64,000 bases of DNA. Origin: Enterobacteria phage GiZh. The stretch's first letter is position 1; each line of letters opens with the position of its first letter. The stretch is taken from sequence record NC_054903.1. The stretch is one strand, 5' to 3'. A program made the translations under genes and the position numbers. Below are positions 2,526 to 58,525 of the stretch, in pieces. A model generated the notes under the pieces. That model did no database searches. It saw only the letters and a list, made by a program, of their open reading frames with translations, and was not told where the DNA came from.

Positions 2526-3550
2526 ATCTTAGCATATTTAGATAACCGCATTTTAGCCATCAACCCCTGGGCAATATTATTTTTCATATATTCCATAATT
2601 TGTTCAGGGGTTGCACCTTCCTTTCTAATCATATCATTAACATCTTTTGATTTCCAGGGAGATTTATCCCAAAACATAACCCTTTCTCCTGCATCAACTA
2701 ATTTAGTCATTCGCTTAATAGTGTCAGGATGACGAGGTTCATTATCTAAGACCCACACACGCCTATCTTTAAATGGAACAACTTCTAGGTCTAATTGACC
2801 ACCCGTAATAGCTATACCATTTTCAATAAAAAGTGAATCTATAGGTCCTTCTAAAACATATACATCACCATCTTTAACTCGTTCGACTCCATATATTTTT
2901 GTTGCCTCAGGATAAGCTTTGATGGTGATATATTTTTGAGGAGCATCTTTCTTTAATGCACGTCCTTGAAAAGACTCAGCTTTTCCATTAGCATTATAAA
3001 TTGGAATAACAAGACGAGGCTCAGAAATTTCCTTTTTGTATGTTCCCGGTGCTATGCTATTAACTAATTTAGGCCATTCAGTTGTAAACCAAAGATATTT
3101 CCATTTATCCTTTGGAATACAACGAGCTTTTACATATTTTATAATTGCATGGTCTTCCGCCAGTTTATCTAATCGAACACATGACGGAAGAGATTTAATT
3201 ATTTTCTTCTCAGGTTGTTTAGGAAGTTCTTTAGGTTTTTCTACTGGACGACTTTTACCTTTTTCTTTTCTTATTTCAAAGATATACTCACGATATAAAT
3301 CAGGTTCAAACTCCTTTAAATATATTCCGATTGGTGCATGATAGTTACAGTTATAACAATGAATATTTCCTTCATTATTATCACCATAATACCATCCACG
3401 AGCTTTATTCTGGTCGGTTTTTGAATCTCCACAAACAGGACATCTAAACCGTAATTTAAAAGTTGAACTATTATTTACTTGTGTGAATTTAGGTAAATGA
3501 GCTAATGCACGGTATGCAAACTCATTATCAATCCAAGGTATTGATGACAT
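2522..3550 (-). CDS. 61: DNA primase gp61
   Basis: 342 aa; MSSIPWIDNEFAYRALAHL..., zinc ribbon CPVCG...CYNC, TOPRIM-like VLDNEPRH; ATG verified at 3550-3548. Confidence 0.9.
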   Translation of the reverse strand: MSSIPWIDNEFAYRALAHLPKFTQVNNSSTFKLRFRCPVCGDSKTDQNKARGWYYGDNNEGNIHCYNCNYHAPIGIYLKEFEPDLYREYIFEIRKEKGKSRPVEKPKELPKQPEKKIIKSLPSCVRLDKLAEDHAIIKYVKARCIPKDKWKYLWFTTEWPKLVNSIAPGTYKKEISEPRLVIPIYNANGKAESFQGRALKKDAPQKYITIKAYPEATKIYGVERVKDGDVYVLEGPIDSLFIENGIAITGGQLDLEVVPFKDRRVWVLDNEPRHPDTIKRMTKLVDAGERVMFWDKSPWKSKDVNDMIRKEGATPEQIMEYMKNNIAQGLMAKMRLSKYAKI

Positions 3551-3713
3551 TTTTACTCTTCTTTTTCTTTAGATTCCTCTTTTTTTTAGGAATCTGTTCA
3601 GGACCTTTATTTACTACAGCGCCTGATGTTGTTCCAGTAGAGATATTTTCAGGATTACCACCTGAATCTCCAGCTACCATATCTTCTTTAATAAATTCTT
3701 TATATGTTTTCAT
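3528..3713 (-). CDS. small basic protein with capsid-targeting-like N-terminus
   Basis: ATG 3713-3711 with AGAGGT RBS; N-terminus MKTYKEFIKE; C-terminal KKKRNLKKKKSKN; 23-nt out-of-frame overlap with gene 61 start. Confidence 0.5.
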   Translation of the reverse strand: MKTYKEFIKEDMVAGDSGGNPENISTGTTSGAVVNKGPEQIPKKKRNLKKKKSKNVINTLD

Positions 3714-8593: not shown

Positions 8594-9436
8594 TTAATCA
8601 ACTGCTATTGGATGAATAGCATTAAACTTATGAAATGCTTCTGATTTTTCTTTACGCGAAACACACATGCGAAGAACCTTTAGTGGTTCATCTTCTTCAC
8701 CCAACGATTTTCGTTTTTCAATATTAGAAGTTTTCCAACGAGCTTGCTCTGGAAACTCTCTATTGATTTGCTCAAGCGCTCTATTATGTTTAGAATTACT
8801 GCGAATTGAACTGCACCCGCCAGGAGCTTGTGCTTTTCCAGATACAACCAGATATTTGAACAAGGCCAAATGCGGATAACCTTGATTAATTAAATTGAGA
8901 AATGCATACATATCTTCGCACAAATCAATTTTTCCATACCCAATTTGTTCTGTCGTAAGTTTTCCAAGGTCATACCATGTATTCGTGAATCCATATGAAT
9001 TTTCACGATAATTACCCCAAGATGAAGTAATTTTAAAAATAGGTAGACGAGCATGGCCATGATAATACCCACAATCCATGGCATCCTCAACATATTGAAT
9101 CAATTCATAGAACTGTTCACGAGTCAATTGATTGACTTTATCCACACAACGACGATCATCTCTTTTTCGCATTGAACTCATACGAATAGTAGTATCATCG
9201 TCAATCATCCAGATTCGTTGACCTGCATACATATCAGTAATTGCTTTACGAGTGCCGGCAATTCCGTTTACATCATCAGGAATAGTTACAATTTTAGCTC
9301 TAGACCCGTAAGCGTCATAATAAGCTTTTTCTTCGTGTTCACGCACTACAATATGGGGTTCATAATCAGTCGGAAACATATCAAGGGCAGAAACTGCCCC
9401 TACACGTTGATAGCTCGGAATTACGAATTGAATCAT
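8594..9436 (-). CDS. putative glycosyltransferase (occupies the T4 segA/beta-gt position)
   Basis: 280 aa from verified ATG 9436-9434 (ATGA overlap with gene 42 stop); DxD-like IDDDTT motif; does not resemble recalled T4 beta-gt. Confidence 0.45.
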   Translation of the reverse strand: MIQFVIPSYQRVGAVSALDMFPTDYEPHIVVREHEEKAYYDAYGSRAKIVTIPDDVNGIAGTRKAITDMYAGQRIWMIDDDTTIRMSSMRKRDDRRCVDKVNQLTREQFYELIQYVEDAMDCGYYHGHARLPIFKITSSWGNYRENSYGFTNTWYDLGKLTTEQIGYGKIDLCEDMYAFLNLINQGYPHLALFKYLVVSGKAQAPGGCSSIRSNSKHNRALEQINREFPEQARWKTSNIEKRKSLGEEDEPLKVLRMCVSRKEKSEAFHKFNAIHPIAVD

Positions 9437-22460: not shown

Positions 22461-22477
22461 AAGGGCCGAAGCCCTTT
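22461..22477 (-). terminator. UUCG-tetraloop terminator at the end of a-gt
   Basis: minus strand AAAGGGC-UUCG-GCCCUUU followed by U/A-rich tract. Confidence 0.55.
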
Positions 22478-23678
22478 ATTTTGTAATAATGTCAAACTGT
22501 TCTTTAAAGCAGAAGCTTGAATCTTGGTGCTGATACAAAAATTCATATGCTTTTTCTCGCTCACGGTCATAAAGAGCTCGGTCAGATGACAGTTCTTTAA
22601 TACGTTCAAATGTTGATTCCATATCATTTTCATCAAACCAAATGATACCGCTATCATGCGAGGTCAAAGGAGTATTATCAACACGGAATTTTAAATTTTC
22701 GCCAGTAGATTTCCAAAATACCGGAATTGTTCCACATGCACCAAGCTCGAGATGAGTATATTCTAAAGAGCGCTGTAGATATTTTTTATCCAACTTACTC
22801 AACTGATAACCAAAACCGGATTTACTCATACGTTCAAGCATTTCGCTATTTACATAACGGTCAAGAATTTGCGTTGGCAAATTAGGAGCAATTTTAATTT
22901 GGTCTACTTGATGAAGACGATAATACTCGTATGGAATTCCTTTTTCTTTAATAGGAATGAACGCTGGAGAACGTTCCAGACCTTCCATAATAGTACTTAG
23001 TCCTGCAGGTTTAAGATGTTTTTCATGAAAATCAAACATCTGATAAAAACCTTTCCATGTAGTCGTACGACCAATCCAACGGTTGATATTCATGTTAATT
23101 TCAGAAACATCTTTCCAGTAGGTTGATCGAACCTTCGCAATATCCATAGGAGGCTGAAAGTTATATACTGTCGGTGCTTCTTCAATATCATCAAACAGAG
23201 AAACAGTTTCTGGATACCACTCTTTCATCAGAACTTTATTAAAATCACCATTATCAGAATGGCTAAAAATAACATCAGCTCGACGAACAGTTTCTTCTAA
23301 TCCCAAATTTCGACGCAAAGAAAGAGAAGAATGGTCATGCTGATAAACTACAACACGAACAGAAGGTTTAATGTTATCAATAATTTTTTTATAGTTATTA
23401 ATAGTGTCTTCTTCAACCGAAGTAGCAGGAACTGAATTGATAATTAGAATATCACAATCATTTACCAGCTTAAGTGTTTTATCGTATTCTTTTGCCAATA
23501 AAACCGGAATTGAAAATGATTTATAATCATGCGCGCAATTACGAGTAAATGATTTATCTTTAGCATAAACCAAAGTTACTTCATGACCATTTTTAATAAA
23601 CCAATCACGTTGCTCGAGTGAGAATTTTGTTACACCACAACCTTCAAGACCTCGAGCCATAAAAATACATACTTTCAT
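22476..23678 (-). CDS. agt: DNA alpha-glucosyltransferase
   Basis: 400 aa; MKVCIFMARGLEGCGVTKFSLEQRDWFIKNGHEVTLVYAKDKSF... matches recalled T4 a-gt; ATG verified. Confidence 0.9.
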   Translation of the reverse strand: MKVCIFMARGLEGCGVTKFSLEQRDWFIKNGHEVTLVYAKDKSFTRNCAHDYKSFSIPVLLAKEYDKTLKLVNDCDILIINSVPATSVEEDTINNYKKIIDNIKPSVRVVVYQHDHSSLSLRRNLGLEETVRRADVIFSHSDNGDFNKVLMKEWYPETVSLFDDIEEAPTVYNFQPPMDIAKVRSTYWKDVSEINMNINRWIGRTTTWKGFYQMFDFHEKHLKPAGLSTIMEGLERSPAFIPIKEKGIPYEYYRLHQVDQIKIAPNLPTQILDRYVNSEMLERMSKSGFGYQLSKLDKKYLQRSLEYTHLELGACGTIPVFWKSTGENLKFRVDNTPLTSHDSGIIWFDENDMESTFERIKELSSDRALYDREREKAYEFLYQHQDSSFCFKEQFDIITK

Positions 23679-48138: not shown

Positions 48139-48519
48139 TCAATTAGAAAATAAATTTATCCAAGATTGTTCTTTAATTAAAAATGGCTCAGAATCATATG
48201 CCATTAAACTTTGGGTAATTAGTCCTTTAAAAGGCCCATCAATAAATTCCATGGTAAAATATGGAATTTTATTCATTAATCTTGCATTAGGAGCAGTGCA
48301 CAAAACTCTGCATCCTTTGAATACGCCTTTTTGTAATTTGTATTGCTTGGGATAAAATTCGCTTAAAATGTTATTATTTGCCAAAATTTCAAAATGATTT
48401 ACCAATTTATTTTTAATAGTTTTTGGCGAAAAATAGAGATATTCGAAAAGCTGTGTGTCTGTCATCATTGCATTCCGATTACGAAAAACTGTGGACGAGT
48501 AATACCACCAATGCAACAT
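48139..48519 (-). CDS. hypothetical protein
   Basis: 126-aa ORF; overlaps upstream ORF by 55 nt. Confidence 0.4.
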   Translation of the reverse strand: MLHWWYYSSTVFRNRNAMMTDTQLFEYLYFSPKTIKNKLVNHFEILANNNILSEFYPKQYKLQKGVFKGCRVLCTAPNARLMNKIPYFTMEFIDGPFKGLITQSLMAYDSEPFLIKEQSWINLFSN

Positions 48520-49052
48520 TTACTATTACAGCAGTAGTGTACAGTGTCAATATGGACGCTATAAATCTTATCCATATCAGGAGATTTGACAGGCTCATCA
48601 ATTATATACAAAATTCGCGAAAGCGATAAACCTCTGAACTTGCTTCCTTTATTACCGATAAAACTACGGACAGAATCGGTAAATAAACGGAATCGAATAT
48701 CATCGCTAGAATAACGAGAAAATTCTTTTTTAATGTGGCCTGCAGAAATTTTAGCGTAAGCTGAAGTATTAGAAAGAACAATAACTGTTCCACCATCATA
48801 CAGCCAATTAGCGGCAAAGTTAGTTACTGCAGTTGATTTACCGGATTGACGTCCACCATCTATACGAAGTGTGCAGTACTGTTTAAGTAATTCTTCAAAT
48901 GGTGGGATATAATCGTTTTTACAAATTTCTTCTACTCTAGCATCAGAATGGTGTGTAAAAGCATTCATCAGGGATAGATAAGGACCAGTTAAAAATGTTC
49001 TCATTTTATTCTCTCTAAATTTGGGCCATTCCGTGGCGCATGAATTGTCCAT
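48465..49052 (-). CDS. P-loop NTPase
   Basis: 195 aa; Walker A GGRQSGKST, Walker B-like LYIIDEP; start may be internal Met. Confidence 0.5.
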   Translation of the reverse strand: MDNSCATEWPKFRENKMRTFLTGPYLSLMNAFTHHSDARVEEICKNDYIPPFEELLKQYCTLRIDGGRQSGKSTAVTNFAANWLYDGGTVIVLSNTSAYAKISAGHIKKEFSRYSSDDIRFRLFTDSVRSFIGNKGSKFRGLSLSRILYIIDEPVKSPDMDKIYSVHIDTVHYCCNSKCCIGGITRPQFFVIGMQ

Positions 49053-49145
49053 TTCTGTATTTACCCATTACCGCACTCAGGCTCGACCTTATCACAGGTT
49101 GGCGGGAATCCCTCACAGAATCATGAGGTCCAGCTTGTTCCCATA

Positions 49146-49619
49146 TTATTTGAACGATTTAACGTACTGAATAGAACCTTTACTATTCACAAAGGCAATT
49201 TTACCATTTTTATTATACATGGTAGCAGTACGTTGATAACCATAAGTTTGTTTACCAGATTGATAACCAACTAATGCGAAATTATCTTCGCCCATTTTAT
49301 TCTGTTTAGCGCGAATGCGTTCATGACCATGTGCCATAAGAACCTTAGCATCACCAGTTGCAATGGATCGACGAGTTTTTTCATCTTCAACTGTATTAAC
49401 AAAGTCGTCAAATGAATCAAATTTAGCATGAGATTTATTATACAATTTTCCATCTACTGCATAATTATATCCCTGTACATCCATCTCAACTTCTGTACCA
49501 TCATCCAATACAGCAGTGATTTTTTGACCTTTTTTAAATTTCAAAAGATCAGTAAAAGATTCAGCAATAATTTGAGAATTAATAGCTGCTTCAGTGATAA
49601 ATTCTTGATATGTTTTCAT
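49146..49619 (-). CDS. internal protein candidate (capsid-targeting-like N-terminus)
   Basis: 157 aa; N-terminus MKTYQEFITEA matches the recalled CTS of T4 internal proteins. Confidence 0.6.
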   Translation of the reverse strand: MKTYQEFITEAAINSQIIAESFTDLLKFKKGQKITAVLDDGTEVEMDVQGYNYAVDGKLYNKSHAKFDSFDDFVNTVEDEKTRRSIATGDAKVLMAHGHERIRAKQNKMGEDNFALVGYQSGKQTYGYQRTATMYNKNGKIAFVNSKGSIQYVKSFK

Positions 49620-49628
49620 ATGTTTCCT

Positions 49629-50045
49629 TTAAATGTAAATATTTTTACCGTAATACTTATACCAATGTGGTTTCATTAAAATTTTTTCATCAAGTCGTTG
49701 TTGACTCAATTTAATAGCTGATTTGCATGGATTATAATCATTTTTCCATTCTACTGGAATATCGCTGATGTCAGGAACTTCAGTATCTTTTATACTGAAC
49801 CCGCGTTTTAAGCATTCCGTTATAATGTCTAATTGACTCTTTCGCAAAAATTCTAACTTATCGTAAAAGAACGTAACATGACCAGAACCTAAAATAAACT
49901 CGGAAGATATTTTAAAATCTTTAACGCGCTTACCGTTTGCCACATGCTTACGAACTATACCAAAAACACGCGGCAATTCACGGTATTCTGCGATTAAATG
50001 TTGATCAGCAAGTTCAGATACTAAAGTCAAATTAATACGAGTCAT
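49629..50045 (-). CDS. denV: endonuclease V (pyrimidine dimer glycosylase) DenV
   Basis: 138 aa; [29 protein letters not shown]... matches recalled T4 endo V. Confidence 0.95.
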
Positions 50046-50070
50046 TTTATCCCTCCAATTAACTGTGAAT

Positions 50071-50101
50071 ATACTATCACAATTCTAGGAGAAAGTAAAC
50101 A
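50071..50101 (-). promoter_or_regulatory. T4-type early promoter upstream of denV
   Basis: minus strand GTTTACT, 17 nt, TAGTAT. Confidence 0.5.
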
Positions 50102-50104
50102 ACT

Positions 50105-50635
<531 letters not shown>

Positions 50636-51091
50636 TTAAAAGAGGCTGTTCATTATTCGGTAAAGTGAAGGACCCATCACATATTGCCACTGAGTACGAG
50701 GAATAAGAGCAAAAGCATCCATCTCTGGAATCATAACACCATCTTTATTTTCAAAATAAGACTCGCAATGGCAATTTCTAAACATCTCATGCTCTACTGG
50801 AATCGTATAATAAAACAGCTGTAAGTCTTTATTACTAGAATATTTAAATACACCTAGGTCTTCTAGAAGGTCTGGATTATAATTGCTAAAACCGGTCTCT
50901 TCTAAGCATTCTCTTCGTGCTGCATCTAGTGCGCTCAAATCAGAATTTTCTACACGGCCTTTTGGAATATCCCAACGATGTGCCATCATTCCAGGCTTAC
51001 GAGAACCAGTAACCCGTCCCATGAATAAATCTTTATCTTCTGTCATAAAGATAATACCAGCTGATAATGTTTTCATTTTAATTTCCTGCAT
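50636..51091 (-). CDS. nudE: Nudix hydrolase NudE
   Basis: 151 aa; Nudix box GRVENSDLSALDAARRECLEETG. Confidence 0.85.
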   Translation of the reverse strand: MQEIKMKTLSAGIIFMTEDKDLFMGRVTGSRKPGMMAHRWDIPKGRVENSDLSALDAARRECLEETGFSNYNPDLLEDLGVFKYSSNKDLQLFYYTIPVEHEMFRNCHCESYFENKDGVMIPEMDAFALIPRTQWQYVMGPSLYRIMNSLF

Positions 51092-55344: not shown

Positions 55345-55420
55345 TGGTCGAGGCAGTAGGGATCGAACCTACGACCTAGGACTTAGAAGGTCCTTGCTCT
55401 TCCTTCTGAGCTATGCCTCG
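55345..55420 (-). tRNA. tRNA-Arg (anticodon UCU)
   Basis: cloverleaf folded by hand: acceptor CGAGGCA/TGCCTCG, anticodon loop CTTCTAA, T-arm GGTTCGATCC, 3' ACCA. Confidence 0.85.
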
Positions 55421-55424
55421 GATT

Positions 55425-55499
55425 TGGCGGACGTGATAGGATTCGAACCTATAACCAATCGCTTAACAGGCGATCGCTCTGCCATTGAGCTACACATCC
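55425..55499 (-). tRNA. tRNA-Asn (anticodon GUU)
   Basis: acceptor GGATGTG/CACGTCC, anticodon loop CTGTTAA, T-arm GGTTCGAATCC, 3' GCCA. Confidence 0.85.
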
Positions 55500-55503
55500 A
55501 AAT

Positions 55504-55590
55504 TGGTGGGGAGTGATGGAGTCGAACCACCCGAGTCGCAATGACAATGGATTTACAGTCCACACCGCTACCTCTACGGGATAACTCCCC
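55504..55590 (-). tRNA. tRNA-Tyr (anticodon GUA)
   Basis: acceptor GGGGAGT/ACTCCCC, anticodon loop CTGTAAA, long variable arm, T-arm GGTTCGACTCC, 3' ACCA. Confidence 0.85.
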
Positions 55591-55602
55591 TAATTCATAA
55601 TT

Positions 55603-55677
55603 TGGTGGCCCTGGGTGGAATTGAACCACCATCTGGCGATTATGAGTCGCTTGCTTGAACCTTCCAGCTACAGGGCC
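55603..55677 (-). tRNA. tRNA with anticodon CAU (Ile2 lysidine-type or Met)
   Basis: acceptor GGCCCTG/CAGGGCC, anticodon loop CTCATAA, T-arm GGTTCAATTCC, 3' ACCA. Confidence 0.8.
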
Positions 55678-55678
55678 T

Positions 55679-55754
55679 TGGTGCTGATTGACGGAATCGA
55701 ACCGCCGACCTTCTCATTACAAGTGAGTTGCTCTACCTACTGAGCTAAATCAGC
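55679..55754 (-). tRNA. tRNA-Thr (anticodon UGU)
   Basis: acceptor GCTGATT/AATCAGC, anticodon loop CTTGTAA, T-arm GGTTCGATTCC, 3' ACCA. Confidence 0.85.
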
Positions 55755-55759
55755 AAAAC

Positions 55760-55849
55760 TGGCGGAGGCGATAGGATTTGAACCTATGAGTCGCCGGAGC
55801 GACTGCCGGTTTTCAAGACCGGTGCATTAAACCACTCTGCCACGCCTCC
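55760..55849 (-). tRNA. tRNA-Ser (anticodon UGA)
   Basis: acceptor GGAGGCG/CGCCTCC, anticodon loop CTTGAAA, long variable arm, T-arm GGTTCAAATCC, 3' GCCA. Confidence 0.85.
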
Positions 55850-55851
55850 AG

Positions 55852-55925
55852 TCTCCATACAAGGATTTGAACCTTGGACCTCCTGATCCCAAATCAGGCG
55901 CTCTACCAAACTGAGCTACACGGAG
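55852..55925 (-). tRNA. tRNA-Pro (anticodon UGG)
   Basis: anticodon loop TTTGGGA, T-arm GGTTCAAATCC; CCA not encoded. Confidence 0.8.
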
Positions 55926-55935
55926 TAAATTAAAT

Positions 55936-56009
<74 letters not shown>

Positions 56010-56013
56010 AAAT

Positions 56014-56101
56014 TTGGTGCGAGAAGTGGGACTCGAACCCACAAGGAAATCATTCCGCAGCATTTTAAGTGCTGTACCTTTACCAATTTGACCATTCTCG
56101 C
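56014..56101 (-). tRNA. tRNA-Leu (anticodon UAA)
   Basis: acceptor GCGAGAA/TTCTCGC, anticodon loop CTTAAAA, long variable arm, T-arm GGTTCGAGTCC, 3' ACCA. Confidence 0.85.
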
Positions 56102-56102
56102 G

Positions 56103-56175
56103 CTGGGAATAAAGGACTCGAACCTTTGCATCCTGGAATCAAAATCCAGTGCCTTACCAACTTGGCTAATTCCCA
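56103..56175 (-). tRNA. tRNA-Gln (anticodon UUG)
   Basis: acceptor TGGGAAT/ATTCCCA, anticodon loop TTTTGAT, T-arm GGTTCGAGTCC; CCA not encoded. Confidence 0.85.
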
Positions 56176-56944: not shown

Positions 56945-57130
56945 CTATTCACCTTTAGAAATTTTATCCATAACGATAGCAATTAAACCAATTAAAAATG
57001 CTACTACAAGTGAAAACACATTTTCTGCTGTAGTCAATAATCCGCATATAAATCCAACAAACATTGAAAAACTAAAAGCAGAAGCAGAAATTGCAATAGC
57101 AACATTTCGAATTAATTCACAACGTTTCAT
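56945..57130 (-). CDS. small membrane protein
   Basis: 61 aa; ATG 57130-57128 with GAGGAGAA RBS; two hydrophobic segments; directly after early promoter. Confidence 0.5.
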   Translation of the reverse strand: MKRCELIRNVAIAISASAFSFSMFVGFICGLLTTAENVFSLVVAFLIGLIAIVMDKISKGE

Positions 57131-57158: not shown

Positions 57159-57189
57159 ATAGTATCACTACCCTATCTAAAAGTAAACT
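57159..57189 (-). promoter_or_regulatory. T4-type early promoter
   Basis: minus strand GTTTACT, 17 nt, TACTAT. Confidence 0.5.
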
Positions 57190-57422
57190 TATTTTTTACG
57201 AAAAATTGATTTATTTTCTGCTGCCCATTTTTCAATAACTGCAGCAGGACCAGTAACAACAATTTTATCACCGTAATCTTCTGCGGCGAGTTGACCGAAA
57301 TTATCTAATGCATCACGAAGAACTCCATGAGGCATTTCACCCATTTTATCTTTCTTGCCGGTGTAAATAAACTCAACTTTTACATCAGAAGATTCAGCGA
57401 TAAACTCTTTGAAAGTTTTCAT
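57189..57422 (-). CDS. internal protein I-like (capsid-targeting N-terminus)
   Basis: ATG 57422-57420 gives MKTFKEFIAESSDVKVEF... (77 aa); track start 57488 is TTG inside the promoter -35; position upstream of 57B/57A as T4 ipI. Confidence 0.6.
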   Translation of the reverse strand: MKTFKEFIAESSDVKVEFIYTGKKDKMGEMPHGVLRDALDNFGQLAAEDYGDKIVVTGPAAVIEKWAAENKSIFRKK

Positions 57423-57498: not shown

Positions 57499-57756
57499 TT
57501 ATTTTAAATCTTCTAATCGTTTCTTCATCTTAGAACCATTTTTAGCAATTTCTCCTGCATCTGAGCATAATGCTAAAAGCGCTTTAACTTTAGTTTGGTC
57601 TCCTTTAAAAGATGAAGGATCGACTGCAGCAGCAAGTTCTTTAATACGAGAGAAAAGACGCTCAGCTTCAGCTAAAGCCATTCCAAGCTTTACTTCCATA
57701 CCGTGGGAAGATTCGGTGATAGTAGTTTTTGTAGCAAACTCTTTGAAAGTTTTCAT
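57499..57756 (-). CDS. internal protein candidate (capsid-targeting-like N-terminus)
   Basis: 85 aa; N-terminus MKTFKEFATKT; ATG verified; own early promoter. Confidence 0.55.
   Translation of the reverse strand: MKTFKEFATKTTITESSHGMEVKLGMALAEAERLFSRIKELAAAVDPSSFKGDQTKVKALLALCSDAGEIAKNGSKMKKRLEDLK

Positions 57757-57828: not shown

Positions 57829-58525
<697 letters not shown>

Follow-up and report, generated by a model that had tools for sequence, protein, structure and literature searches.

The stretch of DNA analysed here, referred to below as the GiZh window, comprises 64,000 nt of Enterobacteria phage GiZh (NC_054903.1; one strand, 5' to 3'). Positions 49146..49619 of its minus strand hold the coding sequence of ip4 (ipIV), a gene identified from the ORF list, from Pfam and PHROG matches and from identity to named Ip4 proteins; its product is the 157-aa precursor of an internal head protein and begins MKTYQEFITEAAINS. 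The gene directly upstream, which shares a transcription unit with ip4, is denV (49629..50045, minus); it encodes endonuclease V, a pyrimidine-dimer glycosylase (Pfam Pyr_excise; annotated as endonuclease V in relatives): the ip4 ATG follows 9 nt past the denV stop codon and has an AAGGA ribosome-binding site ahead of it. denV is preceded in turn by the lysozyme gene e (50105..50599, minus; Pfam Phage_lysozyme and the annotation of relatives), the conserved gene that anchors the variable ip/denV region on the left, and e by nudE (50636..51091, minus; NUDIX). The interval between e and denV is a 59-nt spacer that bears an early-type promoter and nothing else. The right-hand conserved anchor is a vs.8-like gene (48465..49004, minus), which encodes 179 aa counted from MRTF and was assigned through alignment to T4 vs.8 and the annotation of relatives; its open frame reaches back to 49052. 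The protein of that longer frame (48465-49052, minus) carries the P-loop GGRQSGKST, has weak, sub-threshold matches to AAA ATPases (Pfam AAA_14, PADLOC PtuA) and is wrongly labelled 'endoribonuclease RegB' in several relatives.

The order of transcription in the window is nudE, e, denV, ip4, vs.8, and since every gene at the locus lies on the minus strand, ip4 is downstream of denV; the first-pass annotation had placed it upstream, which is true of plus-strand coordinates only. The same annotation was right about the neighbours: the ORF at 49146-49619 is a 157-aa gene with a capsid-targeting sequence (CTS), starts MKTYQEFITE/A (a slash marks the putative cleavage point here and below) and lies beside denV; e adjoins denV with the spacer alone between them; and T4, for which the reference record gives the order e, ipIII, ipII, denV, vs.8, does have ipII and ipIII between denV and e.

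Identity and distribution of Ip4

Ip4 matches Pfam DUF7412 (PF24183) with an E-value of 5.7e-96 and 319.4 bits, against a gathering cut-off of 27, its residues 1-157 aligning to profile positions 1-158, and it matches phrog_3155, 'internal virion protein', at E 6e-102. The GiZh protein is 100% identical to T2 ipIV (labelled 'internal virion protein'), RB32 Ip4 and PP01 IpIV ('internal head protein'), and 99% identical to the Ip4 of K3. By tblastn, Ip4 was found in 469 of 50,697 phage records: at an identity of at least 99% in 289 of them, including T2, RB32, PP01, RB9, RB33 and RB68, and at 60-80% in 160, from T4-like phages of Klebsiella, Salmonella and Raoultella. Among 5.8 billion proteins the family comprises 14 clusters at an identity of at least 61%; when 1.84 billion representative proteins were searched with a profile, only four Ip4 clusters came out below E 1e-10, and the distant members found in this way lie on short metagenome contigs lacking useful context, one of them without a phage match.

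Full-length family matches, together with an identical protein across hundreds of phage genomes, establish that ip4 is not a chance ORF. It is ip4/ipIV, a long-named and already known member of the cassette genes for T-even internal proteins. The Ip numbering reportedly stems from Repoila et al. 1994. As a discovery the finding matters little: the gene is already Ip4 in UniProt (Q38388, the K3 protein), and annotations of it exist for T2, RB14, RB32 and hundreds of other phages.

The 2.8-kb block vs.8-ip4-denV-e-nudE is covered to at least 80% in 410 phage records, at identities of up to 97.6%, and a 601-nt segment that takes in ip4 and both its junctions is covered to at least 80% in 309 records, that of phage TH09 being 100% identical; for comparison, IPIII occurs in 261 records and IPII in 198. 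Several arrangements are found: e-denV-ip4 in teqskov, RB32 and the GiZh window; e-ipIV in T2, where denV is absent; e-denV-ipX-ip4 in phages of the teqsoen, slur and JK38 type, in which ipX encodes 105 aa (phrog_3966); e-Ip4-ipII in Klebsiella Jiaodavirus 311F; and, in Salmonella STML-198, an e-like gene followed by an Ip4-like gene and another ip. ip4 is an accessory gene: it is absent from T4 and present in the 469 records given above, and cassette content varies among phages that are 96-97% identical. Comparison of gene order with T4 and its relatives bore out that the GiZh and T4 layouts truly differ, but the earlier view of this difference as notable did not hold up, ip4/ipIV being a named gene of T2, K3, RB14 and RB32 and its layout being shared by more than 300 records. 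The e-denV-ip4 layout, although correctly described, is ordinary; it is the commonest of the genus, and the T4 layout is rarer.

In DNA modification T4 is a minority type, since a T4-type beta-gt at an identity of at least 90% is found in only 28 phage records; the beta-alpha-glucosyltransferase (GiZh 8594-9436) is found at an identity of at least 95% in about 470. We therefore regard T4 as an atypical reference for both the ip locus and DNA glucosylation, and 'differs from T4' should not be taken to mean 'unusual'. GiZh itself has alpha-gt and the T2/T6-type beta-alpha-gt (8594-9436 and 22476-23678, minus), not the T4 beta-gt, and no segA lies between uvsX and the glucosyltransferase gene in the window. 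The idea that Ip4 travels with the T2/T6-type beta-alpha-gt was set aside as uninformative, beta-alpha-gt being simply the majority state; in Salmonella phages beta-gt, beta-alpha-gt and Ip4 are found together.

Cassette junctions and internal-protein repertoire

ip4 sits in the polymorphic e/denV ip locus, two genes from e, and it is modular: a leader and CTS-coding block shared with other ip genes is followed by an unrelated body. The block (49588..49647, minus), delimited by comparison with T4, comprises the ribosome-binding site AAAGGAAACAT, the ATG and the CTS; over its 60 nt it is 95% identical to the leader and signal-coding block of T4 ipII, and the 27 nt ahead of the ip4 ATG (AAAAATATTTACATTTAAAGGAAACAT) are identical to the T4 ipII leader. 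Of the whole ip4 region, no more than two short pieces have T4 counterparts: this block and an element that runs from 49145 downwards. The 5' part of the block overlaps the final codons and the stop codon of denV, so that denV ends GKNIYI-stop in GiZh vs. GKAIYA-stop in T4: the 3' end of denV (49629-49647, minus) is a recombination scar within the gene of a repair enzyme.

Leader and CTS-coding sequence form a direct repeat in T4, between ipIII and ipII (74 nt, 84%), and in teqsoen, between ipX and ip4 (61 nt, 82%). The teqsoen order is denV-ipX-ip4, and the GiZh window has the same arrangement minus ipX; it keeps the leader of the upstream copy and the codons of the downstream copy from TTTATCACTGAA on, which places the crossover within 23 shared bases, ATGAAAACATATCAAGAATTTAT. 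T2 ipIV carries the promoter and leader found before ipIII in T4, and its 5' breakpoint also lies in the signal-coding block. Aligned with T4, ip4 is thus a precisely bounded insertion or deletion, and the aligned junctions directly show the shared 5' block to be the site at which ip cassettes are exchanged, gained and lost. Junctions mapped in this way give a concrete picture of how such phages swap their repertoire of injected anti-defence proteins. The extra 105-aa CTS gene (phrog_3966) lies between denV and ip4 in about one in four close relatives; it corresponds to teqsoen 2731-3048. Relative to such phages the GiZh window is precisely a deletion, whose breakpoints fall within the repeated block that encodes the signal.

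On the right, the variable region is bounded by a conserved, non-coding element of 141 nt (49005..49145, minus; hairpin at 49111-49128), with a G+C content of 47% vs. 35% for the window as a whole. The element starts GGGAACAA and directly follows the denV stop codon in T4 and the ip4 stop codon in the GiZh window, teqskov, teqsoen and T2. It is annotated in T4 as the N-terminus of vs.8; an 8-nt indel shifts its frame in the GiZh window, so one reading frame does not explain its conservation. The element matched no Rfam family, its folding z of 0.49 indicated no unusual stability, and the consensus fold of five near-identical sequences contained no compensatory changes; these analyses thus gave no sign of a structured RNA. 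An Rfam scan of 48300-50200 gave a lone sub-threshold snoRNA match, inside the ip4 coding sequence, which we dismissed as chance.

The GiZh window spans both classical ip loci and holds Ip4, Ip5 and a 77-aa Ip; no IPI, IPII, IPIII or ipX body was found in it. The proposal that the repertoire differs from that of T4 is thereby confirmed, none of T4's three internal proteins being present, and by analogy with characterised Ips the different repertoire can reasonably be expected to mean different anti-defence specificities for Ip4, Ip5 and the 77-aa Ip. At the ipI locus, between 57B (57829-58284) and a trna.4-like gene (56945-57130), two CTS genes replace ipI: ip5 (57499..57756, minus), which encodes 85 aa with the CTS MKTFKEFATKTTITE/S and is 100% identical in product to RB15 Ip5 and to T6, and, as the second gene, that of the 77-aa Ip (57189..57422, minus), which begins MKTFKEFIAE/S and matches phrog_8111 'internal virion protein' at E 3.3e-51. 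Ahead of each of them stand a promoter-like direct repeat of 71 nt and a leader/CTS repeat of 31 nt. An McrBC inhibitor is encoded at the ipI locus of a BASEL phage that also has two genes there (bioRxiv 10.1101/2025.11.20.689424).

Elsewhere in the window, a 61-aa ORF (3528-3713, minus) lies directly upstream of the primase gene 61, whose start it overlaps by 23 nt. Annotated 61.1 in one relative, it begins MKTYKEFIKE/D, which resembles a CTS with its protease site, and ends in a strongly basic stretch, KKKRNLKKKKSK. With homologues in about 1400 T4-like phage records, among them those of T4 and of phages infecting Aeromonas and Vibrio, the ORF is far better conserved than the ip cassettes; its product might be a universal small packaged peptide. 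The tRNA cluster (55345-56175, minus) has 10 genes, among them tRNA-Asn and tRNA-Tyr, both missing in T4, and contains no segB homing-endonuclease gene; a tRNA-Met (anticodon CAT) called by ARAGORN occupies the position of the tRNA annotated as tRNA-Ile in T4.

Probable expression, processing and function

A motif scan located an early-type T4 promoter, GTTTAC-18 nt-TAGTAT, between e and denV (50071..50100, minus); the same early-type promoter sequence stands ahead of ipIII in T4 and of ipIV in T2, and in GiZh it probably drives early denV-ip4 transcription. Upstream of e (50613..50633, minus) the scan further located two exact copies of the T4 late-promoter motif, TATAAATA. No other exact copy lies nearby, so late e-denV-ip4 transcripts, which in turn likely supply prohead packaging, probably originate here. 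Between e and ip4 no minus-strand terminator-like site was found, and a scan for sigma-70 promoters and terminators performed no better than on shuffled sequence. Lacking a promoter of its own, ip4 probably comes last in two transcripts, e-denV-ip4 and denV-ip4.

The CTS of Ip4, residues 1-10 (MKTYQEFITE; 49590..49619, minus), was recognised by its near-identity to the propeptides of T4 IpII and IpIII: together with the alanine that follows, it agrees with IPII and IPIII at 10 of 11 residues, and the first 10 residues of T4 IpII and IpIII are annotated as 'signal peptide AA -10 to -1' (record X04567). Ip4 falls under the CTS definition MKT[YF][QK]EF..[IL]xE, ending in a gp21 protease site, and M1, K2, F7 and E10 are invariant in the alignment of 14 family members; a cut by the gp21 prohead protease is predicted after Glu10 (I-T-E/A). 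Residues 11-20 (49560..49589, minus) form a low-confidence linker with a second [I/L/M]-x-E motif at its end, I18-A19-E20/S21; all 14 members have Glu at position 20 and I, L or M at position 18. The Pfam domain of T4 IPI begins at residue 20, after ...ITE/A, and a second protease site after E20 of Ip4, comparable to that of the 19-residue T4 IPI propeptide, is possible.

In the AlphaFold2 model Ip4 forms a mixed alpha/beta domain (mean pLDDT 78.8, pTM 0.73), and residues 10-20, with pLDDT below 50, are the sole long low-confidence stretch. Mature Ip4 is predicted to comprise 137-147 aa, with a mass of about 15.5-16.5 kDa, a pI of 9.1-9.3 and a net charge of about +4 to +5. A Foldseek search of BFVD gave a single match, 'Ip4 [Enterobacteria phage K3]', at 99% identity; a sequence-profile search of the PDB with Ip4 gave nothing below E 0.5, and searches of NCBIfam and PADLOC gave no meaningful match.

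The course of events that we propose takes its expression, packaging and cleavage steps from established T4 biology, and its promoter and cleavage-site assignments from motifs alone. The Ip4 precursor would be produced by read-through from the late promoters of e and from the early promoter before denV; the CTS would steer it to the core of the prohead; the gp21 protease would cut after Glu10, removing residues 1-10, and possibly after the invariant Glu20, removing residues 1-20; the mature protein, mildly basic (pI about 9.2), would be packed with the DNA and injected with it; and in the host Ip4 would most likely bind and block one specific nuclease that attacks glucosylated hydroxymethylcytosine (hmC) DNA. 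We put at roughly 0.8 the probability that ip4 as a whole is best explained in these terms, i.e. as a known T-even cassette gene whose product is packaged, processed and injected, and likely blocks a nuclease.

The proposed activity has precedents among other internal proteins: Ip1 blocks the GmrSD of CT596, Ip2 blocks GmrSD-ECOR21 and Ip3 blocks GmrSD-ECOR17, each with strict specificity (PMC12373910; PMC9391042); and Bas37_0260, which bears a CTS and is encoded by a BASEL Tequatrovirus at its ipI locus, blocks McrBC (bioRxiv 10.1101/2025.11.20.689424). The rule invoked by the first-pass annotation, that different Ips have different anti-defence targets, is backed by the finding that Ip1-3 each block one GmrSD variant (PMC12373910) and by the action of a fourth CTS protein, Bas37_0260, on McrBC. 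GiZh makes glucosylated hmC DNA, its window encoding dCMP hydroxymethylase, alpha-gt and beta-alpha-gt, and is therefore a substrate for type IV restriction enzymes. A published screen of ip4-10 against GmrSD variants gave no reproducible inhibition (PMC12373910, Suppl. Fig. 9); T2, which has an identical Ip4, is restricted by GmrSD-ECOR17 and GmrSD-ECOR21, and these two enzymes are therefore not Ip4 targets. Our literature search found no experiment on the packaging, cleavage or target of Ip4. By analogy with the characterised Ips, it is quite likely that Ip4 is an injected anti-defence protein, and there is about an even chance that its target is a type IV restriction enzyme.

It is conceivable, though rather unlikely, that Ip4 is an injected inhibitor of a target outside type IV restriction, such as an immediate-early defence or the exclusion system of a competing phage. 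A target of this kind would agree with the negative GmrSD screen, with a fold that has no solved relatives and with a family that extends to T4-like phages of Klebsiella, Salmonella and Serratia at 60-80% identity; however, Ip1-3 and Bas37_0260 set a precedent for modification-dependent nucleases as targets, and Ip4 still has many candidate targets among the GmrSD, McrBC and other type IV families. Less probable still is a role, after packaging and injection, as a generic basic DNA-associated head protein that serves condensation, charge neutralisation or ejection. Like IPII and IPIII, mature Ip4 is a mildly basic protein, with a pI of 9.1-9.3 and a charge of about +4 to +5; it was negative in the published GmrSD screen (PMC12373910); and it is near-invariant in Tequatrovirus (289 records at an identity of at least 99%), whereas a protein engaged in an arms race is expected to diversify. 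Against such a structural role, each of the four CTS proteins whose function is known specifically inhibits type IV restriction; the presence or absence of the ip4 cassette among close relatives, T4 lacking it, is typical of accessory host-range genes and not of a structural need; and Ip4, unlike a simple basic peptide, is predicted to fold into an alpha/beta domain that bears long invariant motifs of surface type.

In a further, tentative reading, injected Ip4 may inhibit a host defence that the characterised Ips do not address, be it a type IV family beyond those screened or an immediate-early system outside type IV, with a fold that has no solved relatives and with processing at both E10 and E20, a combination that we hold to be somewhat doubtful. 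No other internal protein is as common among sequenced relatives as Ip4, and Ip1-3 and one further CTS protein have recently been shown to be specific type IV inhibitors. Since Ip4 is the most widespread Ip in sequenced T4-like phages of Escherichia, Klebsiella and Salmonella, its target would, if this reading is true, be a common barrier for therapeutic phages.

Relation to other internal and injected proteins

That ip4 is a diverged orthologue of T4 ipIII or ipII, relocated across denV, is extremely improbable: the first 11-13 residues are common to Ip4 and IPII/IPIII, and a weak pairwise BLAST match to IPII (E 7e-7) starts with the CTS, but with the propeptides removed no pair of bodies among Ip4, IPI, IPII, IPIII, Ip5, the 77-aa Ip and the extra Ip of teqsoen was significant (best, Ip4 vs. 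IPII, E 0.029, 25% identity), Ip4 has Pfam and PHROG families of its own that IPII and IPIII do not match, and Klebsiella phage 311F has Ip4 and IpII as two distinct neighbouring genes. The variant in which Ip4 is the IPIII orthologue and the T4 order had been misstated is excluded by the alignments and the T4 record; Ip4 and IPIII align at residues 1-13 alone and show no match once the propeptides are removed, and the protein alignment with IPII and IPIII confirmed that the likeness stops at the targeting signal. The difference from T4 is one of cassette recombination at repeated leader/CTS and promoter blocks, and not of ipII or ipIII divergence.

Ip4/IpIV of K3, T2, RB14, RB32, PP01 and wV7 is the same protein as that of GiZh, at 99-100% identity, of equal length and with the same CTS, and it likewise sits in the variable region from e to vs.8. 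Genomes of the RB32 and teqskov types have an e-denV-ip4-vs.8 order identical to that of the GiZh window; T2 lacks denV, which puts its ip4 directly after e, and there is otherwise no difference of substance. T4 IPII and IPIII resemble Ip4 in their signal (MKTYQEFIAE/A), in leader and ribosome-binding site, in neighbourhood, in a basic mature protein and in dispensability, and both are by now established as injected GmrSD inhibitors (PMC12373910); their mature sequences, however, are unrelated to that of Ip4, and T4 ipII and ipIII lie on the other side of denV, each with an early-type promoter, whereas GiZh ip4 abuts denV and is promoterless. T4 IPI (PF11634), which inhibits the GmrSD of E. 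coli CT596, is a non-essential protein that is packaged and injected; it shares with Ip4 a CTS-type propeptide, which ends I-T-E/A, and a polymorphic ip cassette locus. It differs from Ip4 in the position of this locus, between 57B and the tRNA genes, in the 19-residue length of its propeptide and in its mature protein, which has 76 aa and an unrelated sequence.

Two further systems extend the comparison. The Dar head proteins of phage P1 are likewise packed in the capsid and injected with the DNA, which they protect against restriction (PMC12810830); they belong to an unrelated phage, differ from Ip4 in sequence and in packaging mechanism, and counter type I restriction. Bas37_0260 is found at the ipI locus, and Ip4 at the e/denV locus; this protein demonstrates that CTS cassette proteins beyond Ip1-3 act on type IV restriction, and that the target of such a protein need not be GmrSD.
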